The position numbers were made by a program, and so were the translations under genes. Positions 7,898 through 24,686 of a stretch of 64,000 nt of DNA are shown here, in pieces. The stretch spans positions 1 to 64,000 of IMG/VR virus record IMGVR_UViG_3300020472_001862, one strand, 5' to 3'. The notes beneath the pieces were generated by a model that had not been told where the DNA came from, searched no databases, and was given only the letters and a program-made list of their open reading frames with translations. The DNA comes from a virus. Every line of letters begins with the position of its first letter. Position 1 is the first letter of the stretch.

Positions 7898-9126
7898 TCG
7901 TTCCTACAAGTCCTACCTGATTTGTGTACGCCTTTATGTTTGCCGTCTAAGTGCTTTGTCTTTTTACAGGCTTTGATAAAAGCGTCTATTTCATTTTGTT
8001 TAGCTCTCTCAACTTCCCTTTCTTCTGCTACTATAAGGGCTTGTCGATTTTCCATTTTCTTTTTGTAGTCATCGTAGTCTGGTCTTTCCTGTGAATGTGC
8101 GTCCCACTCTAGAGCTGCCTCTTGTCCAATTTTACCTTCGAACGGACAAGGTGTTCCTGCCATTTCCATCGCTGCAAATACTCTAGCATCTTGACACATT
8201 AAGGATACAGCTGCTACTTTCATTCCCATATCATATACAGTTTTAGAAAGTTTAATCCTTTCACAGTTTTCATCTCTAACAGACTTACCAGCTGCTACAC
8301 CAAATAATTGTGTTTGTACTGCTCCACTAACACCTGTGGTACATAGATCTTGTGAGAAACTTGCTCCAATACTAGGTGCTATGGCACTAGGAGGAGGGCT
8401 TTTAATCTCTTGTTTAATAGTTTGATCTGTCTTGTTAATATTTTCATTTCTATTATTGTTCTCATTCTTGTTCGTGTTATTTGTTGTAACATTAGAATCA
8501 CTTGTACTTTCGTTCTTATTAACATTCGTGTTATTAGATGTTGAATTATTATTGTTATTATTAGTGTTCGTATTATTAGAATTACTATTAACAGTTTGAT
8601 TAACAGTTGAATTATTTGTGTTCGTATTATTAGCAGTACTATTTACTGTGCTATTATTGGTATTCGTGTTGTTGTTAGTATTCGTTGAATTACCAGTATA
8701 ATTCGTGGTGTTGTTATTCGTATTATTATTGGTATTGGTTGAAGTACCTGTGTAATTCGTGGTGTTATTGTTATTATTAGTATTCGTTGAAGTACCTGTG
8801 TAAACCGTGGTGTTGTTATTGGTGTTCGTATTGTTGTTCGTATTCGTATTCGTCGCTGTAGAAGTGTTCGTGTTCACATTCGTATTTGCGTTGGTGTTCG
8901 TATTCGTTGAAGTGTTGGTGTTCGTCGAAGTGTTCGTATTCGTGTTCGTGTTCGTGTTGGTATTCGTATTTGTGTTCGTATTCGTTCCTGTGGTTGTAGT
9001 CGTGGTACTTACAGATTCACAAAACTCTGTGCCTTGTGTACAGTTACCTGTTTGATCTGCATGTGCAGGAGTCGATAAGCCTAAAGCTCCAAACATAACA
9101 AATAGAGCCATATATTTTTTGTTCAT
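7876..9126 (-). CDS. secreted protein with long Asn/Thr repeat and Cys-rich C-terminal domain
   Basis: signal peptide ending AHA-D; about 180 aa of (NT)n/NNN; C-domain PPPSAIAPS...DLC...DENCERIK...MCQD...GTPCP. Confidence 0.85.
   Translation of the reverse strand: MNKKYMALFVMFGALGLSTPAHADQTGNCTQGTEFCESVSTTTTTTGTNTNTNTNTNTNTNTNTNTSTNTNTSTNTNTNANTNVNTNTSTATNTNTNNNTNTNNNTTVYTGTSTNTNNNNNTTNYTGTSTNTNNNTNNNTTNYTGNSTNTNNNTNTNNSTVNSTANNTNTNNSTVNQTVNSNSNNTNTNNNNNNSTSNNTNVNKNESTSDSNVTTNNTNKNENNNRNENINKTDQTIKQEIKSPPPSAIAPSIGASFSQDLCTTGVSGAVQTQLFGVAAGKSVRDENCERIKLSKTVYDMGMKVAAVSLMCQDARVFAAMEMAGTPCPFEGKIGQEAALEWDAHSQERPDYDDYKKKMENRQALIVAEEREVERAKQNEIDAFIKACKKTKHLDGKHKGVHKSGRTCRNEWAELNS
8440..9005 (-). 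repeat. (Asn-Thr)n low-complexity coding repeat
   Basis: TNTNTNTN runs and 3x TTxYTG(T/N)STNTNN; synonymous codons vary, so the repeat is kept at protein level. Confidence 0.9.
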
Positions 9127-9201
9127 TGATGTTTTTCCTCAAATAAATGTCAACTCAAAACAAAAAATAATTTAATCATAACCTCGGTTAGTGTTCCTAC
9201 T

Positions 9202-9209
9202 TATTTATA
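9202..9209 (-). promoter_or_regulatory. T4-type late promoter for the leftward envelope module
   Basis: TATTTATA on + equals TATAAATA on -. Confidence 0.7.
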
Positions 9210-9307
9210 AGATCTGGTCCTTTATAATACCAATATAACACACATATAAGCACCTGGCCTTATAAATCACTATGTGATGGATATTAAGGGCTACTCTAAA
9301 CAGCACT

Positions 9308-9315
9308 TATAAATA
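9308..9315 (+). promoter_or_regulatory. T4-type late promoter for the enzyme operon
   Basis: exact TATAAATA upstream of 9337. Confidence 0.7.
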
Positions 9316-9336
9316 TCTTAGTAATAGGAACAGAGA

Positions 9337-9642
9337 GTGAAAGGCAGAATAGCGTTAACCTTCTTTCTTATGGTGATATTTTTTTGGTCTTGGCCCGTTC
9401 GCCTCTTTACTAAAAAGAACAACTGTTATTTTTGGACATTAGAAAAACTAATAACAAAAGGCGGTCGTGCTAAGTGGTATCCTTCCAAACGATGGGCAGG
9501 GTATCATGTAATCTGGATCTCACCTGAGGGAGAGCAACTTGAATATACACTTCCCAGAATGAGGAGGGACACACCATGGTACAAAATGCTATTTTACAAT
9601 GGATCTGTTCGTAGATTTAGAACAACACGGAAAGATCAATGA
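9337..9642 (+). CDS. hypothetical basic membrane-associated protein
   Basis: GTG start with AGGA SD, N-terminal hydrophobic segment, ATGA overlap with the next gene. Confidence 0.65.
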   Translation: MKGRIALTFFLMVIFFWSWPVRLFTKKNNCYFWTLEKLITKGGRAKWYPSKRWAGYHVIWISPEGEQLEYTLPRMRRDTPWYKMLFYNGSVRRFRTTRKDQ

Positions 9643-10382
9643 GGAAGGCAGTATTAAAACAAAATAAGTCTTGGGCGCCCATCACACTTCTAGCTGGACA
9701 GCTTATCGCTCAGGTTACTGCCATCCTCTCTTTATTTTTAATTGACTGGACGGCATCTACAATAGCAATATCCTTATTTGTCTATATAAGCATTATGTTA
9801 GGCATAACAATGGGTTATCATAGATATTATTCTCACAAAGCATTTAAGATGCCTAAATGGATTGAATACTATCTATTATTCTTTGCACACATTGCTATGT
9901 TTGGCCCAGCAATAACATGGGTAGCCAATCATAGAGAACATCACAAGTATGTAGACACAGAAAAAGATCCACATAGTCCTCACTACCGTGGTTGGTTAAT
10001 GGCATACGCAGGACAAGTTCTTATTGATATAGACTTTAAACTTGTCAGAGATTTATTAAAAGACAACCTACACAGAATGCAAGTTAAATATTATTGGCAT
10101 GTTATAATAGTATATGCAGCTATATTATTTAGTATAAATCCTATGTTACTAATATATGCCTGGTTAGTTCCAGCAGGCTTTGCTAAACTTATAGGTTCAC
10201 TAGTATTCACATATTCTCATAGAGGTAAGAAGGCAAATAGTGATACATGGGTAGGCATTATAACATTAGGTGAAGGTTTCCACGATAAACATCATGTCAA
10301 TGCTCGTACAGCATTATGGCATCCGTTAGATCTTGGTGGCCAACTTATTAGAATGATTGATTCAAATGCTAAAATACAATAA
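9639..10382 (+). CDS. membrane fatty acid desaturase (delta-9-like)
   Basis: His boxes HRYYSH, HREHH and HDKHH; DTEKDPHSP; TM helices. Confidence 0.9.
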   Translation: MRKAVLKQNKSWAPITLLAGQLIAQVTAILSLFLIDWTASTIAISLFVYISIMLGITMGYHRYYSHKAFKMPKWIEYYLLFFAHIAMFGPAITWVANHREHHKYVDTEKDPHSPHYRGWLMAYAGQVLIDIDFKLVRDLLKDNLHRMQVKYYWHVIIVYAAILFSINPMLLIYAWLVPAGFAKLIGSLVFTYSHRGKKANSDTWVGIITLGEGFHDKHHVNARTALWHPLDLGGQLIRMIDSNAKIQ

Positions 10383-11037
10383 ACGACATTATCCAGCAAT
10401 AGCAGAAATAGACGTCAAATTAGATTATAATTTAATAGAAGATTTTCTTTGGGAAAACTATGATCGCTGGCAAGATAATATAACAGCACATAAAGGGCTT
10501 GCCATTGCCTCTAATCACATTGCTAATGATACATACAAGGCAGTTCAACACTTTCATCTAACAGAATGTAATAAAAATGAACCGTTAGGAGAGGCACAAG
10601 AATACTCTACAAAAAACAAATTAAAAAGAAACATTCCTTATTCAATGGACGAACATAATTGGGACGAGCCTGTTGATTTCTACAAAGGAACAAAATTACA
10701 AACACATTTAAACTCTGCCTTTCAGGATAAACTAATACGAGTTAGATATTCTCGTATGTTTCCTGGAGGCGTAGTTCCTAAGCATATTGATTACAATACA
10801 ACTTATGCTATGAGATTTATTATTCCTATATCAGGTAACAAAGGAGTTACAAATACCTTTTGGTATAATGGAGAAGAAATAAAGGTTGAAATGAAGGAGA
10901 AAAGATGTTATTTTCTTAATATAGGATATGCACATATGGTTGAACACCAGGGTATGGGCATACGACATTATTTAATGGGGAGCGTTGCAGGACAACGAGA
11001 TTTTGAATGTATAAGATTTACAACCGAGAAGAATTAG
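10366..11037 (+). CDS. 2OG-Fe(II) oxygenase, Asp/Asn beta-hydroxylase-like
   Basis: RVRYSRMFPGGVVPKHID...RFIIPI...YFLNIGYAHMVEH...R (HxD...H...R). Confidence 0.75.
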   Translation: MLKYNKRHYPAIAEIDVKLDYNLIEDFLWENYDRWQDNITAHKGLAIASNHIANDTYKAVQHFHLTECNKNEPLGEAQEYSTKNKLKRNIPYSMDEHNWDEPVDFYKGTKLQTHLNSAFQDKLIRVRYSRMFPGGVVPKHIDYNTTYAMRFIIPISGNKGVTNTFWYNGEEIKVEMKEKRCYFLNIGYAHMVEHQGMGIRHYLMGSVAGQRDFECIRFTTEKN

Positions 11038-11597
11038 AATCAAGAGGCATTCTAGGCGTCATTGATATAATTATTAATCAAGCATACGAAGAAGGTAACG
11101 GTGAAACCTTTGATAATAAGTATCACCCTTACGAATCTCCAGGAGAGACTTTTGTAGCATTGTGGGAAGGCAGGCCTGCTGGTTTAGTTTCATGTGAACC
11201 TAGTGTTTATACAGGAGATCCTGACATAGCTGCAAGAGCTTGTCGGTTACATGTATTAAAAGATTATAGAGCAAAACAAATAGGTTTTGGACTTCTAGAC
11301 ACATGTTATAACTATTGCATAGATAAATATAAGGTATTGTATATAACACATGATGTCAATTCTAAAGCAATGAATGCTATCTATCAAAAGAAAAAGATGT
11401 CGTTATTTAAAGGTGCCTCTAGAAATCCTTATGAGTTAGAGGCTTGGAAAAAATTAGAATGGAATAAAGAGTATTTGTTTAAAGTAGATCCTACAGCAGA
11501 GTTTTATCAGAACATATACCAAATCATTCTAGAGGAGGGGTTTCGTTGGAATCCTAAAACTAATGTGGTAGATTTTAATGACATTCGTAGTCGATGA
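11007..11597 (+). CDS. GNAT-family acyltransferase
   Basis: [18 protein letters not shown] acetyl-CoA motif A. Confidence 0.7.
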
Positions 11598-11910
11598 TAA
11601 ATGTGTAGATTGTAAACATACAACTTGCGTTACAGTATGTCCTGTAGATTGTTTCTATGAAGGACCTAACATGCTTGTTATTAATCCAGACGAATGTATA
11701 GACTGTGGATTATGTGAACCCGAATGTCCTGTTGATGCAATACTAAGTGAGGATGAGGCAGATCCTTATTGGACAGAAAAGAATGCAGAACTATGTTATA
11801 CAGAAGGTTGGGAAATGATAGACGAACAAAAGCCTCCAATGGAAGGACATGAAGAGGCAAGTAAAATAGAAGATAAAAAGGATAGGTTAATTACTCATGT
11901 TGCAATATGA
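11578..11910 (+). CDS. fdxA: 7Fe ferredoxin (FdxA family)
   Basis: [18 protein letters not shown]...[21 protein letters not shown]. Confidence 0.92.
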
Positions 11911-12517
11911 CAATGAACAAATAATAGATTGGATGGAGGGTGTAAGAAAGCACCCTGATATGGTTAATGCTTTTTGGCCAAGTCAAATAAATTCTAAAAA
12001 CTGGTTATGTGACTGGGTTAAATCCTATTTGCCTAGCGCTAACAGAATAATAATTTTTGGATCTTGGTATGGTGTTTTAGCAGACATGTTAAAAATAAAA
12101 TTACCAAAATCTCAGATAATGTGTGTTGATAAAGACAAAGAACCTTTATTGTGGAGTGCGAGAAAACATGCTTATTGGCACGGTGATATGATTACATTTG
12201 AGTACGATACCCGTGTTGATTTAGTAATAAATACTAGTACAGAACATATGACACAATGGGAATATGATACCTGGTATAATAATATACCTGAAAATACATA
12301 TTTTATTGTACAAGGAAATAATCACTATGGTGAAAAAGATCATATAAGATCTTGTAGAAACTTAGATGAATTTAAAGAACTAAATAGAATTCAAAATTGT
12401 TTACATGGTGATGTTCTAGAGTATGAAGGTCCTTGGGACAAAATTAATAATGAGCCAACAGTATTACAAAGATACATGGCCATAGGTTTTAAAACACAAC
12501 ATGACAGAAAAGATTGA
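11897..12517 (+). CDS. class I SAM-dependent methyltransferase-like protein
   Basis: IIIFGSWYG motif I, VD after strand 2, [11 protein letters not shown]. Confidence 0.7.
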
Positions 12518-13982
12518 AGTAGAAGATATAACAGATAAGAGAGAAAATGATGATAGTCCTCATGCACAACATAACTTAGATGTTCATGATCCTAATGCTT
12601 ATTTTGATTTTTTAAAGAAGACAAGAGATGACATAAACAAAGTCAGCCCTTCTTTCTGTGCAGCTAAATGGACACAATCAACAATACTATTATATAGTGG
12701 TGAAACACATTCCTGCCACCACCCTTCCCGACATAAAATACAATTATCAGATATAAAAGACAATCCTAAAGGCTTGCACAATACTGAACACAAGATGTTG
12801 GCAAGAGAGGAGATGTTACAGGGCATACAAACAAAAGAATGTGATTATTGTTGGAGAGTAGAAAATCAAAATAAAGAACATATTAGTGATAGAATATATA
12901 AGTCATCATACTCTTGGTCTTTGCCTCATTTAAATAAAATAGAACAATCAGGTAGAGGTGAGAACTTTGATCCTACTTATGTAGAAGTAGCATTTGATAG
13001 TACATGTAACTTTAAATGTATCTATTGTAGTCCAGAAGCAAGTTCTAGATGGGAAGACGAAATAAGAAGACATGGAGACATGAAACAAACAGAGTTTAAT
13101 CTAAACAACTTAGATTGGTTAAAGTCTGTAGGTAAACTTCCCATACACCACAAAGAATACAATCCATATAAAGAGGCATTTTGGGAATGGTGGCCTGAAC
13201 TATATCCTAAATTAGAAACTTTTAGAATAACAGGAGGAGAGCCATTACTAAGTAAAGACACATGGAAAGTATTTGATTACATAAAAGAAAATCCTAATCC
13301 AGATCTTATTTTAGCAGTTAATACAAATAACAATGTTCCAGACAAAATGGCAGACAGACTTATTACTAATATAAATGAGATGCAAGACAATATAAAATAT
13401 TTTGACATATACACTTCATTTGAGAACACAGGCAAACAAGCAGAGTATACAAGAGAAGGTATGGTATATGATGAGTTTATAGACAACTGTTACAAAATAT
13501 TAGACAACACACCTAACTCTACAAGAATACATTTTATGACAACAATTAATCTTACAAGTGCTCCTAGCTTGTTAGGATTTCTAGAAGAGATTAAAAAGAT
13601 GAGAGGAACAAAGGGTTCTGTTTATCAACCTACAAAGCATGTATTTAGAACTAGGTTAATGTTAAATTATTTAAGATGGCCTAGACCTTTAATGTTGTCT
13701 TTAATTAGTAAAGAAGATAAACAAAAATATGGTGACATATGGTTAGAATATATGCACGCAAACAAACTAACAGAAGCTAGAAAAGACGAAGAATGTTTTT
13801 ATTTAGAAGAGGTAGACCAAATGGAAAGGCTAGTAGAATTTATGCGCAATGATGAACAACCCGCCGTAGTATATGACGATATGCGCTTATATATAAAACA
13901 GTTGGATGAGAGACGCAACAAGAATTTCTGTGATACTTTTCCTGAATTAAGTTACTTAATGGACAGCGATTATTATGGATAA
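12501..13982 (+). CDS. radical SAM enzyme with N-terminal Twitch-like Cys domain (1 of 5)
   Basis: CNFKCIYC, TGGEP; N-terminal FCAAKW...SCHH...ECDYCW. Confidence 0.9.
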   Translation: MTEKIEVEDITDKRENDDSPHAQHNLDVHDPNAYFDFLKKTRDDINKVSPSFCAAKWTQSTILLYSGETHSCHHPSRHKIQLSDIKDNPKGLHNTEHKMLAREEMLQGIQTKECDYCWRVENQNKEHISDRIYKSSYSWSLPHLNKIEQSGRGENFDPTYVEVAFDSTCNFKCIYCSPEASSRWEDEIRRHGDMKQTEFNLNNLDWLKSVGKLPIHHKEYNPYKEAFWEWWPELYPKLETFRITGGEPLLSKDTWKVFDYIKENPNPDLILAVNTNNNVPDKMADRLITNINEMQDNIKYFDIYTSFENTGKQAEYTREGMVYDEFIDNCYKILDNTPNSTRIHFMTTINLTSAPSLLGFLEEIKKMRGTKGSVYQPTKHVFRTRLMLNYLRWPRPLMLSLISKEDKQKYGDIWLEYMHANKLTEARKDEECFYLEEVDQMERLVEFMRNDEQPAVVYDDMRLYIKQLDERRNKNFCDTFPELSYLMDSDYYG

Positions 13983-15345
13983 AACAGATCCTAAAAATTT
14001 AATTGAATATAGGGACATTACTCTAAACAGTAAGTCTCCGTCTTTCTGTGGAGCTAAGTGGGGTAACAGTACTATATGGTTACATAGTGGTAAAACTACA
14101 AGCTGTCATCACCCTAGACCACATGATATTAGCATAGAGGATATAGAAAAAGATCCTAGTATGTTACACAATACAAATTGGAAAATGGAACAGCGACGCT
14201 TAATGCAAGTAGGAGAAAGGCCTCGTGAATGTCAGTACTGTTGGAAAGTAGAAGACATGGGTCCTGATTTTGTTTCAGATAGAATATACAAGTCATTACA
14301 ATTTACACCTCAAGAAATGAGAAAGTGGGCAGAAGCACCTCATACAGAAAGAGTAGTGCCTCCTACTATTGAAGTTTCTTTTTCCAGAACATGTAACTTT
14401 GCCTGTAGTTATTGTAACGCAGACTTCAGTACAGAGTGGCGTAAAGACATTAAAAAGAATGGACGCTACGACATGGAAACAGAAGGAGGAAATGTATTTA
14501 GTATAGATGGCGACAAAAACAATCCTTACGAAAAATTAAAAGGAATGGAAAATCCTTATACAAAAGCCTGGTGGGAATGGTGGCCAGAACTTTCTAAAGG
14601 ATTAAGAACATTAAGAATAACCGGTGGTGAACCTTTAATGTCAGATGATGTTTGGAAACTTTTTGCTAGATGCAAAGAAGAAGGACATAAGTTTGAAGTA
14701 GGTTTAAATTCTAACTTAGGAGCAAAAGAAAAATTAATAGACAGACTTATAGAAGCATCATGGGGTATGCACAATCTTACTCTATTTACAAGTAATGAAA
14801 CAGTAGGTAAACAAGCAGAATATATTAGATGGGGATTAGACTACGACTATTGGTGTCACAACATGGAAAGAGTCTTCGAAGAATCTAATATCAGAAGAAC
14901 GGTTGTTATGATGACTATCAACGCATTGTGTTTGTTTGGAATTACAGACTTTTTAGATCAAATGATGGTGTGGAAAAATAAATACAAACATAAGAGTATT
15001 GGAATTAGTATTAACTTTTTAAGGTTCCCTGCATGTCAAGCTCTTATTACACTACCAGATGATATAAGAGAAAGATTGGCTAGTGAGATAGAAATGTGGT
15101 ACCACACAAATAAAACAGACAATATGTTAAACGCAATGGAAAAGGGAGACATAGAAAGATTAATTAACTATGTTAGGGTAGTTAAACAAGGACATGATTT
15201 TCATGATGATAACAAGGAAGCCAATGTAAGAGACTTCAAAAGATTTTATACACAATACGATATGAGAAGAGATAGAACAATAGAAGTATTCCCGGATTAT
15301 TTTTTAGATTGGTATAACGATATAGAGGCACCACATGTCGGATAA
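13975..15345 (+). CDS. radical SAM enzyme with N-terminal Twitch-like domain (2 of 5; close paralog of 1)
   Basis: CNFACSYC, TGGEP; FCGAKW...SCHH...ECQYCW...SDRIYKS. Confidence 0.9.
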   Translation: MDKTDPKNLIEYRDITLNSKSPSFCGAKWGNSTIWLHSGKTTSCHHPRPHDISIEDIEKDPSMLHNTNWKMEQRRLMQVGERPRECQYCWKVEDMGPDFVSDRIYKSLQFTPQEMRKWAEAPHTERVVPPTIEVSFSRTCNFACSYCNADFSTEWRKDIKKNGRYDMETEGGNVFSIDGDKNNPYEKLKGMENPYTKAWWEWWPELSKGLRTLRITGGEPLMSDDVWKLFARCKEEGHKFEVGLNSNLGAKEKLIDRLIEASWGMHNLTLFTSNETVGKQAEYIRWGLDYDYWCHNMERVFEESNIRRTVVMMTINALCLFGITDFLDQMMVWKNKYKHKSIGISINFLRFPACQALITLPDDIRERLASEIEMWYHTNKTDNMLNAMEKGDIERLINYVRVVKQGHDFHDDNKEANVRDFKRFYTQYDMRRDRTIEVFPDYFLDWYNDIEAPHVG

Positions 15346-16576
15346 AATACCGACTAAAGATATAAGCGGTGTTTACTGCCCGTTACCATTCAATCATATG
15401 AACTTACACCCTAACGGCAATGTTGGACTATGTTGTGTCTCAGAAATGTTTCCTCCTAATGATGGTTTTTATAGAGATAGAAACCCTCCAAGAGATATGA
15501 TGAACTTATCTAGGAATAGTGTTTCCGAGATGTGGCTAGACAGCAGTGTTGTAGATGCTAGAAATGAAATGTTACAAGGCATAAAACCAGCCGCTTGTCA
15601 TAACTGTTATAAGATTGAAGAAAGAGGTGGTAAGTCAAGAAGAAAAACAGAAATAGAAAGGTGGGGCCAAAACATATACAAACCAAGACTAGAGTTTTTA
15701 GATTTAAGAATGTCTAACTTATGTAACTCTAAATGTATGATGTGTAATCCAGATTCAAGTTCATCACTAGCAAAAGAATATAAACAATGGGAAAACAAAT
15801 TAGACTTTGTACAAGCAGATCCTAAAACATATCAAGAGTATCAATGGTTCAACGATGACAAAATAGAAGAAATATTAGAACATAAAGATACATTGAAGTA
15901 TATGTATATTAATGGTGGCGAGCCTTTTATGATGCCATTTCATTGGAAGTTTTTAGAAAGATTAATAGAAGAAGGTGTAGCAGAGAATATTCATATTAGT
16001 TACAACACAAACTGCTCCATGTTTGAAACATGGTATGATGACATTTGGAAACATTTTAAATATGTATCATTGGGTATGTCTGTAGATGGTGTAGACAAAG
16101 TTAATGAATGGATTAGAAAACCTGTAAAAGGAAATACATGGGAACAAATAGATGAACATGTTAATAAATTATTTTTTGAATGTCCCTCTTTATACGCAGT
16201 TAATATTACTAATACAGTACAATTTTTAAATGCTCCTTACTTAGATGAGTATTATGACTGGGCACAACCTATTGTAGACAAAAGATGTGAAGATCCTAAG
16301 TTAGGTATAGCAACTATCAATCAAAACTTTCTTGTATTTCCTCATTACCTATCTTTAAATTGTGCCTCACAAGAATGGAAACAAAATTTAAAACAACACC
16401 TACAAAGTTCTAAATATGCGAAACAAATATTAACACCCACAATGATTAGTTACTTAGACGCTAAAGATGAAAACGAACTTCTTTGGAATCAGGGTATGAA
16501 GTTCTTAGATACTGTAGAAGGAACAAGAAAATTAGGTCCTTGGAGAGACATATTCGATTATGACTACAAATTTTAA
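15335..16576 (+). CDS. radical SAM enzyme with N-terminal Twitch-like domain (3 of 5)
   Basis: CNSKCMMC, NGGEP; YCPLPF...LCC...CHNCY. Confidence 0.9.
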   Translation: MSDKIPTKDISGVYCPLPFNHMNLHPNGNVGLCCVSEMFPPNDGFYRDRNPPRDMMNLSRNSVSEMWLDSSVVDARNEMLQGIKPAACHNCYKIEERGGKSRRKTEIERWGQNIYKPRLEFLDLRMSNLCNSKCMMCNPDSSSSLAKEYKQWENKLDFVQADPKTYQEYQWFNDDKIEEILEHKDTLKYMYINGGEPFMMPFHWKFLERLIEEGVAENIHISYNTNCSMFETWYDDIWKHFKYVSLGMSVDGVDKVNEWIRKPVKGNTWEQIDEHVNKLFFECPSLYAVNITNTVQFLNAPYLDEYYDWAQPIVDKRCEDPKLGIATINQNFLVFPHYLSLNCASQEWKQNLKQHLQSSKYAKQILTPTMISYLDAKDENELLWNQGMKFLDTVEGTRKLGPWRDIFDYDYKF

Positions 16577-17960
16577 GAACAATAAATCCTTATGTATTTT
16601 TCCTTGGATAGAAAACTACCAAGGAAGTCGTTACGAAAGAAAATATTGTTGTATATCAGATGATTTAAAGGGATTAGAAAAAACAACAGAAGAAGAGTTT
16701 TTTAATTCTGTTTATATGAAAGAAACTCGATTAGATATGTTGGCAGGAACAAAGCGCCCTGAATGTCATGCTTGTTATCAAAACGAAGATAATAATATTT
16801 TGTCTCTAAGAGAGGAAGCAACATTTGAACAAGACGGTTCACTAAAAAACAATTTTGAGGAATTAGTGCAACATACAAAAGAAGATGGTTCTGTTGATAT
16901 GAAACCTAGTTACTACGATTCAAGAACAATACATTGTAATCTACAATGTGTTTCATGTGGTATAGTATATAGTTCACGACATATAGATTTATTTTTAGAA
17001 ATGTTTGGTAAGGATACTTTAGACAATGCCAGAGGTAATGGCGGTACACCAGGCAATCCTTTTAAAGTAGATAAGAAACATGAAGCACAAACTGCTAAAG
17101 AAATGGAAGCAGGATTAGAAGAAAAAAGAATAACAGGTTTCTATTGGGCAGGAGGAGAGCCGTTTATGTCTCCTGTACATTGGACAGTAATGGAAAAAAT
17201 CTTAGAATTAAAAGAGAAACCTGGTTATAAAGATTATATTGATAATTTAAGAATACATTATAATACAAACTTAACTAGAAGAGAGTGGAAAAGAAAACCT
17301 ATATCTCAAATATTAAACAAATACAAACATCTTAGAATAGAAGCAAGTTTAGATGGTACACATGAAACATTAGAGTATACAAGAGATGGTGCCATATGGA
17401 ATGAAATAGAAAACAACTGGCGAGAGTTTGCTGAAGCAGGTATTACAATGGAGGTTGCAAGTGTTTTAACAGCCCCTGTTATATTTGATGTAGATAGATA
17501 TATAGATTTCTTTGAGCAGTGGCCAGGTATGAGAATTGCAAATCATTTGTATATGATAAATCAACGAGATATAGGCATGCAAAGTACTTTAGATATATGT
17601 TTCTGGCCAGATCATATATTTTATCCCGCTATGGATAAAGCAGTAAATGCTTTTAAAAGGTCTTCTTTCTTTAACAAAGAAAAAACAATAGATATATTAA
17701 ATTACTATTATAAACAAAAAGAAGAACTAAAGGGCATATTTAATACCCCTAAGGTTTTAAGTGCTATAAAATCTAAAACAGTTTATAGAGATGAATATCA
17801 AAAAACAATATCTTTACCTGACTTGTTAGCAATAACACACCCCGAGGCAAGAGAGTGGTATCTTAATCTACCTTATAATATGGAAGATTATTTTGGCTAT
17901 CATGTAGACCTAGTAAGAGATAATATTAAATTAAAGAGCATACCCGTGAGGCAGATATAA
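16560..17960 (+). CDS. radical SAM enzyme with N-terminal Twitch-like domain (4 of 5)
   Basis: CNLQCVSC, AGGEP; LCIFPW...YCC...CHACY. Confidence 0.9.
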   Translation: MTTNFKNNKSLCIFPWIENYQGSRYERKYCCISDDLKGLEKTTEEEFFNSVYMKETRLDMLAGTKRPECHACYQNEDNNILSLREEATFEQDGSLKNNFEELVQHTKEDGSVDMKPSYYDSRTIHCNLQCVSCGIVYSSRHIDLFLEMFGKDTLDNARGNGGTPGNPFKVDKKHEAQTAKEMEAGLEEKRITGFYWAGGEPFMSPVHWTVMEKILELKEKPGYKDYIDNLRIHYNTNLTRREWKRKPISQILNKYKHLRIEASLDGTHETLEYTRDGAIWNEIENNWREFAEAGITMEVASVLTAPVIFDVDRYIDFFEQWPGMRIANHLYMINQRDIGMQSTLDICFWPDHIFYPAMDKAVNAFKRSSFFNKEKTIDILNYYYKQKEELKGIFNTPKVLSAIKSKTVYRDEYQKTISLPDLLAITHPEAREWYLNLPYNMEDYFGYHVDLVRDNIKLKSIPVRQI

Positions 17961-19231
17961 TGCAAAGGAATAAGTCTTATTGGGATAGCGGATATTTTAG
18001 ATTTGAAACATTAAATAAAATGCACATAGAACTTTCTAGTCTATGTAATTCTATATGTCCTAACTGCCCTCGATATTTTCAAAATAGCCCTAACGAAATA
18101 CCAGAGTTAATACCCCAATCTATATCAATTGAAAACTTTAAAAAATGGTTTCCACCTGAGACCTTAAAACAAATAACATATATGAATTTTTGTGGTAATC
18201 ATGGAGACCCGGTTACATGTAAAGATCTACTTCCTATATTAGAGTATTGTTTTACGTCTTTGCCTAAAAATGGTGGATTACAGATGCACACAAACGGAGG
18301 AATGAAGTCTGCTAAAGTGTGGAATAGAATAGGAGAATTGTTTGCACAAAGACCTGGATGGAAAATGATATTTAGTGTTGATGGTTTAGAAGATACAAAT
18401 CATATATACAGAAGGAATGTTAATTGGAAAAAATTAATAGAAAACATTAAGGAATATACTCAACATGGAGGGGACTCAGATTGGGAGTATTTAATCTTCA
18501 GACACAATGAACATCAAATAGACGAAGCAAAAAGAATGTCTAAAGAATTAGGAATAAAACAATTTGTCCAAAAAATTGCACATGGTTTGGATAACGGTGT
18601 AAATTATGCTACTATGCCTGCAATAGATAAGTCAGGAAAGACTGATTATCAAATTTATCCTCCAAGAGAAAAGAAGAACAAAGTTAATTATATAAAAGGC
18701 TCAGACGATAAAATTATAATAAAGGATAAATCGTTTGAGAAAGTAACTACCCCAAATAAAGATAATGAATTAGCATTTATAGCAGGCACAAGTGGCCTAG
18801 ATAGAATGTCCGCTCAGGAATTAGAGGAACTAGATAATACAGTTATACGACCTAGGTGTCATAGAGAAGTATTTGTATCAGCTGCTGGGTTTGTTACACC
18901 ATGTTGTTGGATTGGTTTGCTTGTTCCTTATATAGACCATGAAGATAAAACTTCTTTGTTCTTTGAGTGGCACCAGTTAAAAGAAAAGATGTTGGAGATA
19001 GGTTTAGATTTATTTAGTTTATATAACGATACATTAGAAAATATTTTAACTGAAAATAGATTAAATAAAGTTTATTCAGATGATTGGAATAAAACTACAG
19101 CATGTGGAAAATTACAAGCATGTACTAAGGTATGTGGAGCACCAAATGTTTTAGACGACACAATGTCTCACGAAGAAAACCCATACAAAAAGACAAGAAA
19201 GAGTACAGATCATAGGGAACACCTTGCATGA
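17960..19231 (+). CDS. radical SAM enzyme with C-terminal SPASM/Twitch domain (5 of 5)
   Basis: CNSICPNC, GNHGDP; C-terminal RC...PCCW...CTKVC. Confidence 0.9.
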   Translation: MQRNKSYWDSGYFRFETLNKMHIELSSLCNSICPNCPRYFQNSPNEIPELIPQSISIENFKKWFPPETLKQITYMNFCGNHGDPVTCKDLLPILEYCFTSLPKNGGLQMHTNGGMKSAKVWNRIGELFAQRPGWKMIFSVDGLEDTNHIYRRNVNWKKLIENIKEYTQHGGDSDWEYLIFRHNEHQIDEAKRMSKELGIKQFVQKIAHGLDNGVNYATMPAIDKSGKTDYQIYPPREKKNKVNYIKGSDDKIIIKDKSFEKVTTPNKDNELAFIAGTSGLDRMSAQELEELDNTVIRPRCHREVFVSAAGFVTPCCWIGLLVPYIDHEDKTSLFFEWHQLKEKMLEIGLDLFSLYNDTLENILTENRLNKVYSDDWNKTTACGKLQACTKVCGAPNVLDDTMSHEENPYKKTRKSTDHREHLA

Positions 19232-19791
19232 AGTTACAGCTTATAAATCCAAACTATCCTGTCTGGGAAGTTACTAATTTTAATCTACCTGAAATAGAAT
19301 TATCAGGCATTAAAACTTATGATCAACAATATACTTCTCAAACCTCACACTTAAGACAACAATGTAAGCCTGACACTAGACTTCACAACGCATTTTCTAC
19401 TGTTTGGAACGATCATACTAAAATTTTAGAAAAGTTTATTAGAAAGGAGATGAATGATATAGAAGAAGTTAGACAAATGTGGATGAAAACTTTATCTAAC
19501 TTTACTTACCCACCTTTCTCTGTGTCAGGAGAGTTTATACAAGACGAAGAAGGTTTTAATATGGCACCTCATGTAGATAACAGGGGTGTATTTGGTGTTT
19601 TAATTATTAACTTAAAAGACAACCCTTTATTATCCGGAACACACTTTACTACAATGAAATGGATGGGTCCTACAAAGAAACATACAGGTGTCTTTATGTT
19701 AAACAACTGGAATACCCAACATGGAATAAATAATCCAGGACCAGGTAATAGATTAATAGCTTATCAGAACTTACACATAGATTCAATATGA
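19228..19791 (+). CDS. 2OG-Fe(II) oxygenase
   Basis: MAPHVDN...GTHF...TQHGI...NR (HxD...H...R). Confidence 0.7.
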   Translation: MKLQLINPNYPVWEVTNFNLPEIELSGIKTYDQQYTSQTSHLRQQCKPDTRLHNAFSTVWNDHTKILEKFIRKEMNDIEEVRQMWMKTLSNFTYPPFSVSGEFIQDEEGFNMAPHVDNRGVFGVLIINLKDNPLLSGTHFTTMKWMGPTKKHTGVFMLNNWNTQHGINNPGPGNRLIAYQNLHIDSI

Positions 19792-20921
19792 AAATAGAAG
19801 TCGTAATAAAACCTAGTATAATGAAGAATGCTTCAATTATATGGGAACCTTCATTAAATTCCTTTGCAGATTGGTGGTGTTCAATGTATGTTGGTAGAGA
19901 GATGTATAAACAAAAATCTTTTACAGTTTTAGATAGTTATAAAAAACTTTATAATCATTGGGGCTCAATGGATGGCCACGAAGAATTAAAAAAACAAACA
20001 CAAAAAATTAGAAGAATAATTACAGAGATAAATGAATATATTGAGGACCCTAAAGATTATTTTCCTTTAAATCCTAAAGAGGTAAATATAAAATTAAATA
20101 ATAAAGGTAGACAACAACTTAATGAACTTCATCGTTACTTTGTTAGAATAGCCTATCCTACAACGGCATTTAATAAATCAAATATGTCGTATGCAGGCCC
20201 AAGACAAAAAGACAATAAAGGAATGGAGTGGTCGTTTAATTGGCACATGGATCGTCCAGATTATGTATTAGAAGAACCATTCAAAAAATACCCTGGAGAT
20301 TTTTACATAAATAGATTTGTTGCTAGAGATTTTATTGATAAAGTAGGAGAGTTAAATTATGGTTGTCATGATATAGAACCTTTCTTTTATGAAAAATCTA
20401 AGATAGCAAGAAACATGATACATCAACCAGGTCTTGTTGTACAACCTATTGTATCTCAAAAATGGAGAGAAAGGTGGTATAAAGTTCCTGAGGAATATTA
20501 TTCAGCAACGCGTGAGGATACAAAAAAAGATATGATCTTTTATGCTAAGAAAAGAGCAGACCTTAAGGACATACCTCCTTACTTTGAACACTTTCAGTCT
20601 TCTGATAAGCAATTTGATGTTTGGACACCACAAAATTGTGTATTAGGTAAAAGCACTTCAATAGCATATTGTGATGAAGACGACCCTACATCTTTTGATG
20701 TTAATAATGGACACCAAGTCAATTTTGCCTTTGAGTTTTCTGACAGAGAAGATAGAGACTATTTAAGAAAGATAGGGTATGGTGGCAAAAACCCTTATGG
20801 TTGGCCTTTAGGAAGAATAGTATCTGGAAGAGAACTGTTTGAAGAAATAAGGAGTAAGTATTTGTCTAGAGAAATTATGCACAACAAACAATTAGTAAAA
20901 GAGATAAAAGTATGGAAATAA
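19788..20921 (+). CDS. hypothetical protein, paralog of 2744..3865
   Basis: LNELHRYF, LNYGCHDIE, LGKST...DEDD. Confidence 0.65.
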   Translation: MKIEVVIKPSIMKNASIIWEPSLNSFADWWCSMYVGREMYKQKSFTVLDSYKKLYNHWGSMDGHEELKKQTQKIRRIITEINEYIEDPKDYFPLNPKEVNIKLNNKGRQQLNELHRYFVRIAYPTTAFNKSNMSYAGPRQKDNKGMEWSFNWHMDRPDYVLEEPFKKYPGDFYINRFVARDFIDKVGELNYGCHDIEPFFYEKSKIARNMIHQPGLVVQPIVSQKWRERWYKVPEEYYSATREDTKKDMIFYAKKRADLKDIPPYFEHFQSSDKQFDVWTPQNCVLGKSTSIAYCDEDDPTSFDVNNGHQVNFAFEFSDREDRDYLRKIGYGGKNPYGWPLGRIVSGRELFEEIRSKYLSREIMHNKQLVKEIKVWK

Positions 20922-21664
20922 AAACAGAACATTTTCAAGGCATGAGATCCTTGGAACCAACTGAAAATTTTAAACGAGCATTAGTTACAGGCTGTGGTAG
21001 TAAATTTGGAAAAGTTTTATTAGAACAATTAGCACCAAAATATGATGCAATAGATTTAATATCTTCTAAACAACAACACCAAGTAGAATTGCCCGAGAAT
21101 GTAAGAGTTCATCCTATAAATTGGCACGAAAGTATGGAATATTTTATACAGTATAAAATGCCAGACTATCATAAAGATGCTTATGATTTAATATTCTTTA
21201 ATCACAATAACAAACCTCACGGTTTTGGAATAGAGTCCTATTATAAAGATGTTTTATGGACACAAGAGATTGTTAATAAAGTAAAGAAAAATGCTAATAC
21301 AAAAATAGGTTGGATGATTACAGCAGGAATTGTTTCACCTCCCGATTGGTTCGAGTACTCTCCTTATTTCCACCAAAAACATTCTCGATTATATTTAATG
21401 TACTTTCTACAATATATGAATAACTGTAAATTCTTTGCAATAGATCCAGGAGAACCAGACGCTTTAACACCAGACGAAACATGGGAACAAGCAAGACACA
21501 TGGTTAAATTTATGGCGCATAAAAATGATATGGAACCTGCAACCTTATATAAAGCAATATATCATAACGGCAAAGTACAAGAGCCAGAATTTAATTGGAA
21601 GTTAGATTGGATAAGGCAAGAGGAACAAGATTATTATCCTGAGGACCCTTTTATATATGATTAA
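20912..21664 (+). CDS. SDR-like NAD(P)-binding protein
   Basis: ALVTGCGSKFGK Rossmann motif, DLIFFN, YxxxK (YFHQK), AIDPG. Confidence 0.65.
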   Translation: MEIKTEHFQGMRSLEPTENFKRALVTGCGSKFGKVLLEQLAPKYDAIDLISSKQQHQVELPENVRVHPINWHESMEYFIQYKMPDYHKDAYDLIFFNHNNKPHGFGIESYYKDVLWTQEIVNKVKKNANTKIGWMITAGIVSPPDWFEYSPYFHQKHSRLYLMYFLQYMNNCKFFAIDPGEPDALTPDETWEQARHMVKFMAHKNDMEPATLYKAIYHNGKVQEPEFNWKLDWIRQEEQDYYPEDPFIYD

Positions 21665-23060
21665 GTGGGGCATATCAGCATACAACCATAACGCAGCAAT
21701 ATCTGTTGTTAAAGATGATCAAATTCTTTTTGCATCTGAGTCTGAAAGATATAGTGGTATAAAGAACGATTCTAATATACCTGAGAATATGATTAAAGAA
21801 GTATTAGAGTATGGAGAGCCAGATCAAATACATTGGTATGAGAATCAACTATTAAAAAATATAAGAAGATTATACGCAGGACAAAAGTGGAAAAAACTAG
21901 ACATACATCCTTGGATAAAAAGAAAAAGGATTAGATATCATGGCCATCACGAAACACATGCAAGGGCAGGATTTTACACTAGCCCTTTTGATTCTGCTAC
22001 TGTTCTTGTTGTAGATGCTATAGGAGAGTTTAATACAACTTCTATATGGCACGCAACAAACAAACATCTTACTAAATTTTGGACAGAAAATTATCCTAAC
22101 TCTTTAGGTTTATTTTATAGTGCTATTACACATAGGGTTGGATTAAAACCTAACGAAGAAGAATATATTCTTATGGGTATGGCAGCATATGGAGACCCTT
22201 ACAAGTATTATAGTCATATGAAACCTTTATTGAAACAAAACTTACATAGAGGTTGCAGGAATTGGTTACCAGGAGTACAAGGACAACAAGACTCTTTTGA
22301 TATAGCAGCTTCGGCTCAATTAATTTATACAGAAGAGTTTGAAAAACTTGTTAGCTTGGCAAGCGCAACAAGCCCTAACAAAAATCTTGTTTTGATGGGA
22401 GGGTGTGCTTTAAATTGTGTTGCTAATTATATTGCACTAAAATATTTTGATAATGTTTGGATTATGCCAGCTCCTGGAGATGCTGGTTCATCATTAGGCG
22501 CAGCATTAGACAAAAAAGTAGAATGGAAAGGTCCTTATTTAGGACATAATATAGAAGGTGATTATCCTGTAACAGACATTATAAAAGAATTAAAGAAAGA
22601 CAGATTAATAGGAGTAGCAAATGGAAGAGCAGAGTTTGGCCCAAGGGCTTTTGGAAATAGAAGCTTGCTTGCAGACCCTCGAGGCTTACAAGTAAAAGAC
22701 AAAGTAAATGAAATAAAACGAAGGCAAAAGTTTAGACCTTTTGCTCCTGTTGTAATGGAGGAACATGCACATGAATTATTTGACATGCTTGTATCCTCAT
22801 CTCCTTATATGCAGTATGTTATTAGATGTAAAGAACCAACCAAGTATCCTGCAATAGTGCACAAAGATGGCACATCTAGGGTTCAAACTGTAAATAAGAA
22901 ACAACATTTAGGCCTTTATACGCTCTTATCTGAGTGGTATAAAGAAACAGGGTGTCCTATGTTACTTAATACAAGTCTAAACATCAAAGGCAAGCCTATG
23001 GTTAATACAATGGCAGATGCTAAAGAATTTGAAAGGACATACAATGTACGAGTGGCCTGA
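21657..23060 (+). CDS. carbamoyltransferase (NodU/CmcH/TobZ family)
   Basis: HHETHA, SLGLFY, MGMAAYG, GGCALNCVAN, PAPGDAG, GRAEFGPRAFGNRS, FRPFAP, LNTSLN. Confidence 0.95.
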   Translation: MIKWGISAYNHNAAISVVKDDQILFASESERYSGIKNDSNIPENMIKEVLEYGEPDQIHWYENQLLKNIRRLYAGQKWKKLDIHPWIKRKRIRYHGHHETHARAGFYTSPFDSATVLVVDAIGEFNTTSIWHATNKHLTKFWTENYPNSLGLFYSAITHRVGLKPNEEEYILMGMAAYGDPYKYYSHMKPLLKQNLHRGCRNWLPGVQGQQDSFDIAASAQLIYTEEFEKLVSLASATSPNKNLVLMGGCALNCVANYIALKYFDNVWIMPAPGDAGSSLGAALDKKVEWKGPYLGHNIEGDYPVTDIIKELKKDRLIGVANGRAEFGPRAFGNRSLLADPRGLQVKDKVNEIKRRQKFRPFAPVVMEEHAHELFDMLVSSSPYMQYVIRCKEPTKYPAIVHKDGTSRVQTVNKKQHLGLYTLLSEWYKETGCPMLLNTSLNIKGKPMVNTMADAKEFERTYNVRVA

Positions 23061-23967
23061 TTTGCCTGATGGGTATTATAGTTTTTGGGGAACAGAACCT
23101 CAAAGGCCTGATAGAATTTTAAAAGATCTAGAACAAAGAAGAAGGGTTATATTAAATCCTCAAAAGCCCAGGGTTTGGTTTTTTGGAGATAGCTTCGTAC
23201 AATGTCCAGATGATAATATATGGGAGCCTATATCAAAAGAATTTAATCCGGTACATAGGGGTGTAGGTGGTACAGGTGTAGAAGCAGTATGGGCACAATT
23301 ATCAATATGTAAAGATCATATACAGGCTGAAGATAGAGTAGTCATAGCATTTTCTCATCATGACAGAGAACTACTTAGAGATGGTATTAGAGGACAACCT
23401 CAATTTAGATATCGTTCAGATACACCACCTAAGGTTACAAATACTAGACAATACGCTCCTGTGGGTATACCTTATCGCTCTGATGAATATACAGATTTTG
23501 TAGATGATAAAATATGGACAGAGTATTTAGAAAATGTAAGATGGGAGTTATCCAATTTATTAAAAGTTCTGGCCATGGTAAATAATATTGTACATGATAT
23601 TATACCTTCGTTAAAAACACCTCATGTTGCACATTTTGCTTGTTTTGGATTACATGACCCACAAATACATTTACTAAGAAAATATAATTTTTCAGAAAAA
23701 AGAATAAGAGAATTAACACAACATTTACAGAATACTCCCCCTTTATGGGGTTTTGCACTAGAAAGATCTGGGTATCGTTGGGTAAGCGGAGAGGGTTGGG
23801 TTCATTTTAACCCGGAGGAATCAAAGAAACCTTGGGGAGAGCGAAAGGTGTCAACACATAGACACCCTTCTCCTAATCATTACTTAGATGAAGATGTAGT
23901 ACCCTTTTGGAATACCTATAAAGGTACTCTAGAAAAGCTATGTCTAGAACAACCTCTGTATAAATAA
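23044..23967 (+). CDS. SGNH/GDSL-like protein
   Basis: WFFGDSF, GVGGTG, C-terminal PNH; probable start ATG 23044. Confidence 0.55.
   Translation: MYEWPDLPDGYYSFWGTEPQRPDRILKDLEQRRRVILNPQKPRVWFFGDSFVQCPDDNIWEPISKEFNPVHRGVGGTGVEAVWAQLSICKDHIQAEDRVVIAFSHHDRELLRDGIRGQPQFRYRSDTPPKVTNTRQYAPVGIPYRSDEYTDFVDDKIWTEYLENVRWELSNLLKVLAMVNNIVHDIIPSLKTPHVAHFACFGLHDPQIHLLRKYNFSEKRIRELTQHLQNTPPLWGFALERSGYRWVSGEGWVHFNPEESKKPWGERKVSTHRHPSPNHYLDEDVVPFWNTYKGTLEKLCLEQPLYK
23959..23966 (+). promoter_or_regulatory. T4-type late promoter
   Basis: TATAAATA 5 nt before ATG 23972. Confidence 0.7.
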
Positions 23968-23971
23968 AAAT

Positions 23972-24265
23972 ATGAAGGGTAAGGTTATTAAGTTTCCGAG
24001 AAAAGAACCAAAACCTAAAATCATTAAAGGTTATAGGATGGCGTTCTATACTGAAGATGAAATAGATCTAGCTGTTCTATGCTTAAATACTTACGGTTGG
24101 AAAAGAATAGGCTACACAAGAGAGACATTAACTAAAGTAGACCCTTTGTACATAAAAGATTGCTTAATACGAGGTTATGGTTCAGATTTATTATCTTTCC
24201 CTGCCAGAAAACTTATAAATAAAATTATAGACGGAATGGAAGAAATAGCAGTGAGTGTAAAATAA
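23972..24265 (+). CDS. hypothetical protein
   Basis: 97-aa ORF with KVIKFP N-terminal motif. Confidence 0.7.
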   Translation: MKGKVIKFPRKEPKPKIIKGYRMAFYTEDEIDLAVLCLNTYGWKRIGYTRETLTKVDPLYIKDCLIRGYGSDLLSFPARKLINKIIDGMEEIAVSVK

Positions 24266-24267
24266 AT

Positions 24268-24606
24268 ATGCCAATATATAGTTTCGAGAATGACAAAGGT
24301 GAAACTTGGGACGAAATGATGTCCTGGGACGATCGCTGTATATACCTAAAAGAAAACCCCACAATCAAACAAATTATTACAGGTGCTCCTAATATTAACA
24401 AGGGTGGCACAGGTGATAGAACAAAACCTGATGGTGGATTCAAAGATGTATTATCTAGAGTAGCAGAAGCTAATCCTTATTCACCTATGGCAGATGACTT
24501 TGGAAAGAAAGATTCTAAATCTGTTAAACTTAGAAATACAGTTAAAGATGTTAAAAAACGAGTCGGCGGTTTAATGTCTGAATCTAAACCCGACAATTTA
24601 AAGTAA
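24268..24606 (+). CDS. FmdB-like regulatory protein as found upstream of phoH in T4-like phages (no Zn cysteines)
   Basis: MPIYSFEN..GE.W..MMSW...Y LKENP...GFKDVL. Confidence 0.6.
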   Translation: MPIYSFENDKGETWDEMMSWDDRCIYLKENPTIKQIITGAPNINKGGTGDRTKPDGGFKDVLSRVAEANPYSPMADDFGKKDSKSVKLRNTVKDVKKRVGGLMSESKPDNLK

Positions 24607-24686
24607 GGAGGTCTCATAGAAAATATTATATCATGTTAGGGTAACAATTCAGTTGCATAGACTTATAACTAACAGGAGAACAATTA

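Follow-up and report, generated by a model that had tools for sequence, protein, structure and literature searches.

The virus record IMGVR_UViG_3300020472_001862 of IMG/VR represents an abundant 170-kb marine T4-like phage (170,236 bp, judged 99% complete), of which the first 64 kb, hereafter the window, were analyzed here. Between positions 9337 and 23967, its plus strand carries 16 consecutive open reading frames (ORFs), g01–g16, which include genes for a desaturase homolog, a ferredoxin, five radical S-adenosylmethionine (SAM) enzymes, and a carbamoyltransferase followed by a putative SGNH-fold protein. Our analysis suggests that these genes form a late-expressed unit of three modules that, by way of a carbamoyl relay, would jointly modify a single scaffold, for which a sugar, glycan, or glycoconjugate is the most likely candidate. 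We put this reading forward as tentative, with slightly more doubt than trust attached to it.

Every junction between neighboring genes of the unit overlaps by 1–44 nt, which implies coupled translation. A T4-type late promoter motif (TATAAATA) is located at 9308–9315 on the plus strand, 21 nt upstream of the GTG start codon of g01, and a motif scan of the genome revealed no further plus-strand late motif between 9308 and 23959. The next two plus-strand motifs are found at 23959 (23959–23966), which marks the end of the unit, and at 24214; genome-wide, the motif occurs 40 times on the plus strand versus 7 times on the minus strand. The unit uses ~9% of the phage genome, has the same GC content as the remaining genome, and sits between a fiber-like gene and phoH, and no riboswitch or other RNA was found in 8800–25500. 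We read g01–g16 as one late transcription unit, as had been proposed in an earlier note on this DNA, made from the sequence alone, which described 16 consecutive overlapping genes behind a late promoter.

The carbamoyl module (g14–g16) lies at the 3′ end of the unit and contains the only O-carbamoyltransferase gene of the genome, g15 (21657–23060, +). Both carbamoyltransferase domains score over their Pfam cut-offs (Carbam_trans_N, 137.3 bits; Carbam_trans_C, 177.2 bits), and comparison with the solved enzymes NovN, GdmN, and TobZ (PDB 9s2t, 7vzq, and 3ven) gave E values of 4e-51 to 8e-34, with NovN at 3.7e-51. The substrates of these nearest structurally solved relatives are sugars or the hydroxyls of polyketides. 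While g15 shares both Pfam domains with them, it is shorter (467 aa versus 576–702 aa) and possesses a tyrosine-tailed partner that NovN, GdmN, and TobZ lack. The gene had earlier been called a NodU carbamoyltransferase; the carbamoyltransferase part of this label holds, but g15 is not NodU proper, as it reached 148 bits against the NodU equivalog model NF041651, whose cut-off is 1000. The tailed partner is g14 (20912–21664, +), a protein ending in the residues EDPFIYD (21641–21661), whose stop codon overlaps the start of g15 (TATGATTAA). Its TGxGxxxG and YxxxK motifs are invariant in four sequences and point, if weakly, to a Rossmann protein resembling the short-chain dehydrogenases/reductases (SDR); g14 had no Pfam match, and its best PDB match had an E value of 0.063. 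Similarly, g16 (23017–23967, +) may tentatively be assigned to the SGNH fold by a match to platelet-activating factor acetylhydrolase (E 4.5e-5 over residues 49–126) together with a block I containing the GDS signature (FFGDSF) and a block II-like GVGG, with block V not clear and no Pfam match. The SDR and SGNH labels of the earlier note, as well as its methyltransferase label for g06 (described below), thus retain some weak support.

The DPFIYD tail follows the carbamoyltransferase across phages. In a six-frame scan of the 3.14 Mb of DNA examined, the pattern [DEN]P[FYW][ILVM]Y[DEN]-stop was found at nine ORF ends, all of which lie ≤101 nt from a carbamoyltransferase gene. No free small ORF with a tyrosine tail is present inside the unit, where the tail sits on g14; in three other loci (L038, L050, and L093), free ORFs of 29–47 residues that abut the carbamoyltransferase gene end in DPFIYD. 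An unbiased search of IMG/VR with a pattern for the encoded tail followed by TAA yielded 78 loci and 76 tailed ORFs, 70 of which are microproteins of ≤60 aa, mostly a basic helix followed by DPFIYD and with no membrane helix; in the remaining six, the tail forms the end of a longer protein. All six residues of the tail are invariant, and the body that precedes them varies. A carbamoyltransferase gene abuts 35 of the 76 tailed ORFs, and ~22 more have one within 2 kb in the same orientation; eight are at locus edges, and ~10 have no carbamoyltransferase in the stretch examined. Since most radical SAM loci are without the tail, we link it to the carbamoyltransferase and not to the radical SAM enzymes, and it is fused to g14 in the present lineage. 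Other fusions were also noted: in L203 (2536–3252), DPFIYD ends a 238-aa protein that toward its C terminus looks like the final block of an SGNH fold, and in L233, L243, and L267 it is fused to an acidic 119-aa protein, with no carbamoyltransferase seen in the stretches examined of these four loci.

This arrangement resembles the Dlt and PatAB systems, in which an invariant tyrosine within a C-terminal hexapeptide, either free (DltX) or fused (PatA), passes an acyl group to an SGNH protein, and in which this relay decorates envelope glycopolymers (PMC12148441). Common to DltB/DltX/DltD, PatA/PatB, and the phage genes are a C-terminal motif with an invariant tyrosine, carried by a free microprotein or a fused protein, and the placement of this tail next to an SGNH-like protein and behind a group-activating enzyme, with g16 one gene downstream. 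SGNH-like genes accompany the carbamoyltransferase in the window and in L007, L008, L029, L050, L056, L093, and the cultured Ralstonia phage RsoM2USA. As a working model, we consider the tail, the carbamoyltransferase, and the SGNH-like protein as a carbamoyl-tyrosine relay analogous to, and not a member of, the Dlt/PatAB family. In contrast to Dlt/PatAB, the transferred group would be carbamoyl and not acyl. A bolder extension of this model, which we rate as rather improbable, is that the trio would constitute the first tyrosine-shuttle/SGNH version, a soluble one, that moves carbamoyl without a membrane acyltransferase and would finish a phage glycan containing sugars edited by the radical SAM enzymes described next, through chemistry so far unseen on carbohydrates.

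The five radical SAM genes form the array at the center of the unit, and all carry the CxxxCxxC and GGE SAM-binding motifs. The paralogs g07 (12501–13982), g08 (13975–15345), g09 (15335–16576), and g10 (16560–17960), all on the plus strand, scored 285.9, 274.8, 286.3, and 224.7 bits against the NCBIfam model NF033640 (N_Twi_rSAM; curated cut-off 170 bits), so that all four are members of this N-terminal-twitch family, as the earlier note had recognized; the family is catalogued but uncharacterized, without a known reaction. Each of the four has four invariant N-terminal cysteines ahead of CxxxCxxC as well as a GGEP motif; in an alignment of 11 N_Twi sequences, C15, C33, C88, and C91, followed by C130, C134, and C137, are invariant. 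Pfam places a SPASM domain at residues 15–92 of g09, N-terminal to the radical SAM core. The fifth enzyme, g11 (17960–19231, +), is not an NF033640 member, as it reached 60.7 bits over the radical SAM core only; this core occupies its N terminus, and the N-terminal domain of that family is absent. It had been described as carrying a C-terminal SPASM/Twitch domain. A twitch-like set of extra cysteines is indeed present (C78, C315, C316, C388, and C392, conserved in 43–46 of 46 homologs), but the seven-cysteine SPASM motif is absent, so that these cysteines could hold a single auxiliary cluster but fall short of a complete SPASM domain. Relatives of g11 were found in 78 viral loci, and a homolog in the bacterial locus L119 scores for Radical_SAM plus SPASM.

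The N_Twi copies of the window are only 17–26% identical to one another, versus 33–49% to their orthologs in distant phages. In a tree built with FastTree only, g07–g10 and a further copy elsewhere in the genome fell into five clades, each with orthologs from other phages: g07 forms its own clade, g08 groups with ORF202 of RsoM2USA (support 99), and g09 and the most diverged paralog, g10, are on long branches. By comparison, nine of 12 sampled N_Twi copies of a Bdellovibrionales genome fell into one recent clade, indicating a recent tandem expansion. The phage paralogs are hence old and non-redundant, presumably doing different jobs. The further copy, a sixth N_Twi gene scoring 292.9 bits, is located at genome positions 121095–122378, after the clamp-loader and regA genes, and is followed by a prolyl-4-hydroxylase-type 2-oxoglutarate (2OG) oxygenase gene and an HSP20 gene (121095–123905 overall, corresponding to L001 1426–4236). 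A neighbor of this copy was initially a candidate g06 paralog and was rejected, the gene being the prolyl-4-hydroxylase-type oxygenase. An apparent split of g10 in L099 was likewise rejected as a scaffold gap.

Two genes lie between the array and the carbamoyl module. The first, g12 (19228–19791, +), is a probable 2OG/Fe(II) oxygenase. It carries the HxD...H motif on which this call is based and had been listed earlier as the second oxygenase of the unit, and it had no database match, nor a match in a profile search against the PDB; it follows g11 in several lineages (L025, L026, L007, L008, and L095). The second, g13 (19788–20921, +), listed earlier as a protein with an unassigned His motif, is predicted by its structure model (predicted local distance difference test score, pLDDT, 76) to adopt a cyclophilin-like β-barrel with a helical insert. 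The model aligned with 33 cyclophilin-fold chains at VIA-align Z scores of 9.0–10.8 over 117–158 residues. This resemblance surfaced in an all-against-all structure aligner only; Foldseek and a PDB sequence profile gave nothing, and there was no Pfam match even at E 1. With nine close clusters in 5.8 billion proteins and 66 remote relatives, g13 belongs to a narrow, fast-evolving phage family.

The tail, the array, and g13 also admit a peptide-derived product. Here, the DPFIYD end would be the core of a ribosomal precursor, and the radical SAM enzymes, oxygenases, methyltransferase, and carbamoyltransferase would assemble a small molecule or cofactor on the terminal Tyr-Asp, as in mycofactocin or pyrroloquinoline quinone (PQQ) biosynthesis, with the cyclophilin-like g13 and the proline-hydroxylase-like g03 handling the peptide. 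The invariance of the tail behind a variable body and the cyclophilin-like fold agree with such a role, as do the frequent action of Twitch/SPASM enzymes on peptides, the presence of mycofactocin maturase among the weak NCBIfam matches of g09 and g11, the appearance of CteB, SuiB, SkfB, EpeE, and anSME in the fold search, and the subtilase gene beside an N_Twi pair in L119. The mycofactocin maturase (MftC) model TIGR03962, however, gave only 23.8 bits for g09 and 20.8 bits for g11 (cut-off 265), and the tail follows the carbamoyltransferase, with most N_Twi and g11 loci having neither. Moreover, Pfam scans revealed no domain of the RiPP recognition element (RRE) type and no peptidase in the unit, and a 250-residue enzyme-like leader would be unusual. 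We consider a peptide product unlikely. The earlier statement that the unit has no small precursor of a ribosomally synthesized and post-translationally modified peptide (RiPP) and no peptidase thus stands for the peptidase, but a peptide-like element does exist in the tail of g14.

Upstream of the array, the head module comprises g01–g04 and g06. Of these, g02 (9639–10382, +) is firmly assigned by homology as a Δ9 acyl-CoA/acyl-lipid desaturase homolog of the di-iron type: it scored 53.2 bits against PF00487 FA_desaturase (cut-off 29.7), matched SCD1 (4ymk) with an E value of 3.3e-13, and retains three invariant His boxes (H61/H66, H98/H101/H102, and H215/H218/H219). The family score likewise makes g04 (11007–11597, +) a firm GNAT N-acyltransferase assignment (Pfam), and this gene is kept in the head module. 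For g03 (10357–11037, +), an invariant HxD...H and a profile match to L-proline cis-4-hydroxylase (E 3.5e-5) lend some, if weak, support to a 2OG/Fe(II) oxygenase of the AspH/proline-hydroxylase type, whose best solved relative is a free-proline hydroxylase; the gene had earlier been labeled Asp/Asn-hydroxylase-like, and Asp_Arg_Hydrox matched below the cut-off only. A weak match also suggests a class I methyltransferase-like fold for g06 (11897–12517, +; PDB profile match, E 0.004), a marker of the widespread cassette; relatives of g06 were found in 118 of the loci examined. Between g04 and g06 lies g05 (11578–11910, +), an FdxA-type 7Fe ferredoxin that scored 126.7 bits against NF045490 FdxA, just under the equivalog cut-off of 135, with cysteines at positions 9, 17, 21, 40, 43, 46, and 50 spaced as in a 7Fe ferredoxin. 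The desaturase, GNAT, and ferredoxin calls of the earlier note are upheld by these scores. As g05 was found in only three of ~13 related loci (the window, L007, and L089), it is an accessory insert.

The first gene of the head module, where it always takes this position, is g01 (9337–9642, +), a 101-aa protein with an N-terminal hydrophobic helix. Its description as a membrane protein was read from this one hydrophobic stretch. The motifs NNCYFW (Cys30) and GYHV (His57) are invariant behind the helix, and g01 had no Pfam, PHROG, or PDB match. A papain/LRAT-like Cys-His enzyme, suggested by the NNCYFW...GYHV arrangement, was given no support by a PDB profile search. A complex prediction for g01 and g02 scored 0.20 against a mark of 0.32, a value that says nothing for or against binding.

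The head module raises the alternative that the unit remodels lipids or glycolipids, with the head desaturating, hydroxylating, and N-acylating a membrane lipid or the lipid A/lipopolysaccharide of the infected cell and the radical SAM enzymes working on this lipid too, or on its head group. The clear relationship of g02 to SCD/DesC-type Δ9 desaturases and a g01 read as membrane-anchored would suit such a role, and lipid A and ornithine-lipid hydroxylases belong to the family of g03. The genes g02 and g03 also travel as a pair, which is accompanied by g06 and g11 in L077 and L103, two lineages distant from the window phage. The phage has a second such desaturase–oxygenase pair, located at 32939–34362 just after gp32, in which a Δ9-desaturase homolog 26% identical to g02 is followed by a 2OG-FeII_Oxy_5 oxygenase. 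Furthermore, the Δ9 lipid desaturases encoded by cyanophages (vFAD) have enzymatic activity, and their cyanobacterial counterparts take ferredoxin as the electron donor (PMC5776448). Like vFAD, g02 is a phage gene for a short desaturase homolog of the SCD/DesC type that has three His boxes; unlike vFAD, it is second in a late operon, with g01 always in front of it and a 2OG oxygenase gene behind it, in a phage whose host is not a cyanobacterium. Against a lipid target, the desaturase is absent from 77 of 78 g11-type loci, the best solved match of g03 is the proline enzyme and not a lipid enzyme, and no radical SAM gene reaches a lipid-family cut-off (the tetraether synthase model gave 15 bits). 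In L096, moreover, the g02–g03 pair stands alone without a radical SAM gene nearby, so that the pair can work alone. A lipid role for the whole unit therefore seems to us distinctly unlikely.

Comparison with related loci revealed that the operon is best described, from gene content, as three modules that occur apart: the head (g01–g04 and g06), a variable radical SAM array, and the carbamoyl tail module. The earlier note had envisaged one pathway, and the modularity speaks against this form of the proposal; the genes are nevertheless conserved together among close relatives, as the order is kept in the close contigs L007 and L008 and also in L095. Eleven more contigs (L085–L095) keep the head in the order g01-g02-g03-g04-(ferredoxin)-g06, behind which one to six or more N_Twi genes follow, with the tail module present or not. 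The comparison of the window with L007 and L008 showed uneven divergence: the radical SAM and flanking genes are 74–96% identical (82–96% for the flanking genes by themselves), whereas g06, g13, g14, and g16 are only 41–53% identical. This pattern fits a variable surface product, such mosaics being typical where genes determine the structural details of a product that varies.

The same modularity could mean that there is no single product. In this composite alternative, an auxiliary-metabolism head (desaturase pair, GNAT, and ferredoxin), a radical SAM array, and a carbamoyl module would share a late promoter only through a permissive insertion site between the fiber-like gene and phoH. The separate occurrence of the three modules, the change from one to six or more array copies behind the same head, the coming and going of the ferredoxin, and locus L090, in which the tail module is missing and g17 and g18 directly follow the array, would all be expected. 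The coupled translation implied by the overlap at every junction, the order kept in L007, L008, and L095, and the embedding of g03-type and g06-type genes in arrays of unrelated phages speak against this alternative; g03-type oxygenases, for example, were found within the N_Twi arrays of L050, L063, L064, L068/72/76, L077, and L103. We regard the composite as doubtful, though deserving of weight.

A minimal form of the cassette is present in a cultured phage. The Ralstonia soil phage RsoM2USA (MG752970) carries it as ORFs 199–204, in which ORF202 is the g08 ortholog (48.5% identity) and ORF199 the g15 ortholog (50.8%). It differs from the window in having one N_Twi gene, no DPFIYD tail, and no head module. 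ORFs 200, 201, and 203 (L180 11186–15194) encode three SGNH-like paralogs in which G-C-S replaces the GDS serine block, as is also the case in L093. ORFs 199–204 are annotated as hypothetical, and the phage paper does not discuss them (PMC8504454); our literature searches for the N_Twi family or the cassette found nothing relevant. New here are the modular build of the operon and the great age of its paralogs, the desaturase/ferredoxin head module, the cyclophilin-like g13, the fused tail and its linkage to the carbamoyltransferase, the parallel to the tyrosine shuttle, and the cultured model phage.

Returning to a sugar, glycan, or glycoconjugate as the common scaffold, the recurrence of cassette members together in unrelated phages and the similar divergence of the g08 and g15 orthologs in RsoM2USA favor a joint function, and bacterial gene contexts provide a modest lead toward this target. 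A complete Bdellovibrionales chromosome carries at least 17 N_Twi genes, and one of its arrays adjoins genes for a UDP-sugar dehydrogenase, a GT2 glycosyltransferase, and an AsnB-type amidotransferase. On a Bacteriovoracaceae contig, carbamoyltransferase, GT4, N_Twi, and radical SAM genes stand in a row, and a Brucella homolog of g06 adjoins four glycosyltransferase genes (two GT28-type and two GT4-type). These contexts favor a glycan-type target, which we take as the best guess; the earlier note had favored virion glycans or proteins. Pfam searches of the neighboring genes in L013 and L029 gave mostly no matches. A PhoH-like gene was also seen beside a tandem N_Twi array in Bdellovibrionales genome G001 (L194 5350–6666); phoH follows the cassette in the window phage and in L029.

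The assigned and putative enzymes of the unit have a counterpart in the aminoglycoside tailoring sets (BtrN, AprD4/AprD3, HygY, TobZ, and KanJ/KanK), which combine a twitch radical SAM enzyme, an SDR-type reductase, a carbamoyltransferase, a 2OG oxygenase, a GNAT, and a methyltransferase, acting on sugars. However, no member of the unit scores as an equivalog of any enzyme in these sets, and no cyclitol synthase or glycosyltransferase is found in the unit. No enzyme maps to a housekeeping equivalog of NCBIfam either. Base hypermodification in phages can involve carbamoyltransferases and radical SAM enzymes, so that the enzymes of the unit could decorate a modified DNA base, a target that had earlier been kept in view. 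We found no support for it: the unit is preceded by a late promoter and is separate from the replication genes, Pfam scans of the unit revealed no DNA-binding, glycosylase-fold, or kinase gene, and the bacterial homologs occur in sugar contexts. DNA hypermodification is the least likely of the alternatives and, in our view, highly improbable.

Several observations weigh against the glycan-tailoring proposal and its relay. No glycosyltransferase, nucleotide-sugar enzyme, or flippase is encoded within the unit, the sugar genes being elsewhere in the genome; the earlier description of the pathway as self-contained is thus doubtful, as genes for sugar activation and export are also missing from the unit. 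Lipid or protein substrates would suit the desaturase, the proline-hydroxylase-like g03, and the cyclophilin-like g13 better than sugars would, and in bacterial locus L119 a subtilase gene, not sugar genes, stands beside the N_Twi pair. The structure model of g09 matched only generic radical SAM cores in the PDB (TM score ≤0.43), with peptide-, nucleotide-, and sugar-acting enzymes all near TM 0.3–0.4, so that no substrate class is readable from the N_Twi fold. With regard to the relay, the phage tail PFIYD-COOH fits only the F-x-Y part of the Dlt/PatAB motif FXYXXF and lacks x-x-F, carbamoyltransferase loci without a tail exist (L029, L056, RsoM2USA, and L195), and it is not obvious why a soluble pathway would require a shuttle. 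A search of the 170-kb genome for the membrane acyltransferase family MBOAT (PF03062) gave no match, AT3 not having been searched.

The reactions, relay, and target that we infer from these genes would combine as follows. The radical core, consisting of g06, g07–g10, and g11 with g12, would make successive and different C–H-abstraction edits, possibly epimerization, dehydrogenation, deoxygenation, or C-methylation, with the 7Fe ferredoxin g05 reducing the radical SAM clusters. In the carbamoyl module, g15 would turn carbamoyl phosphate into carbamoyl-AMP and load the carbamoyl group on the tyrosine of the DPFIYD tail, which is fused to the SDR-like g14 here and is a free microprotein of 34–47 aa elsewhere; g16 would then hand the group on to an acceptor hydroxyl, making the relay a soluble counterpart of the acyl-tyrosine-to-SGNH relay of Dlt/PatAB. 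The head (g01–g04) would add O2-dependent and N-acyl steps, which may act on the same product, on its lipid part, or in a separate membrane-lipid function.

N_Twi arrays occur in aquatic phage contigs numbering from dozens to hundreds, as well as in a cultured soil phage and in predatory bacteria. The product, once known, would assign chemistry to the whole N_Twi family and could reveal a new kind of decoration on virions or cell surfaces with an influence on how hosts are recognized in the ocean. If true, the carbamoyl relay would mean that an acyl-transfer mechanism discovered only recently also serves carbamoyl groups and also operates in soluble systems. The tyrosine tail further reduces a vague tailoring cluster to a three-protein question, and RsoM2USA, being culturable and manipulable, offers a genetic system.

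The phage itself has T4-like baseplate genes, and by its baseplate wedge protein gp6 its closest cultured relatives (35–37% identity) are the Pelagibacter phage HTVC008M, the Methylophilales Melnitz phages, and cyanomyoviruses; a nucleotide search of a phage collection gave no match. The same phage was assembled from Tara Oceans and other marine samples, with one of its proteins listed in 76 blocks of the public collection. Among these assemblies, L098 is a natural variant with two single-nucleotide polymorphisms (SNPs) in 16.5 kb, at window positions 11306 and 11345, both in the GNAT gene; the apparent split of this gene in L098, where it is called as two pieces, comes from these two SNPs. 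Further along the window (29061–31199), genes for an NAD-dependent sugar epimerase/dehydratase and for a "GlcNAc" glycosyltransferase of family PF11397 lie on either side of the late-transcription coactivator gene; the Skp1 hydroxyproline GlcNAc-transferase belongs to this family as well. Divergently from the unit, a 416-aa gene is transcribed at 7876–9126 (−), whose C-terminal domain (residues 257–398) shares 46–59% identity with proteins from six Pelagibacter phages that differ in morphotype. This domain may serve in receptor binding, and the similarity would then hint at SAR11 as the host.

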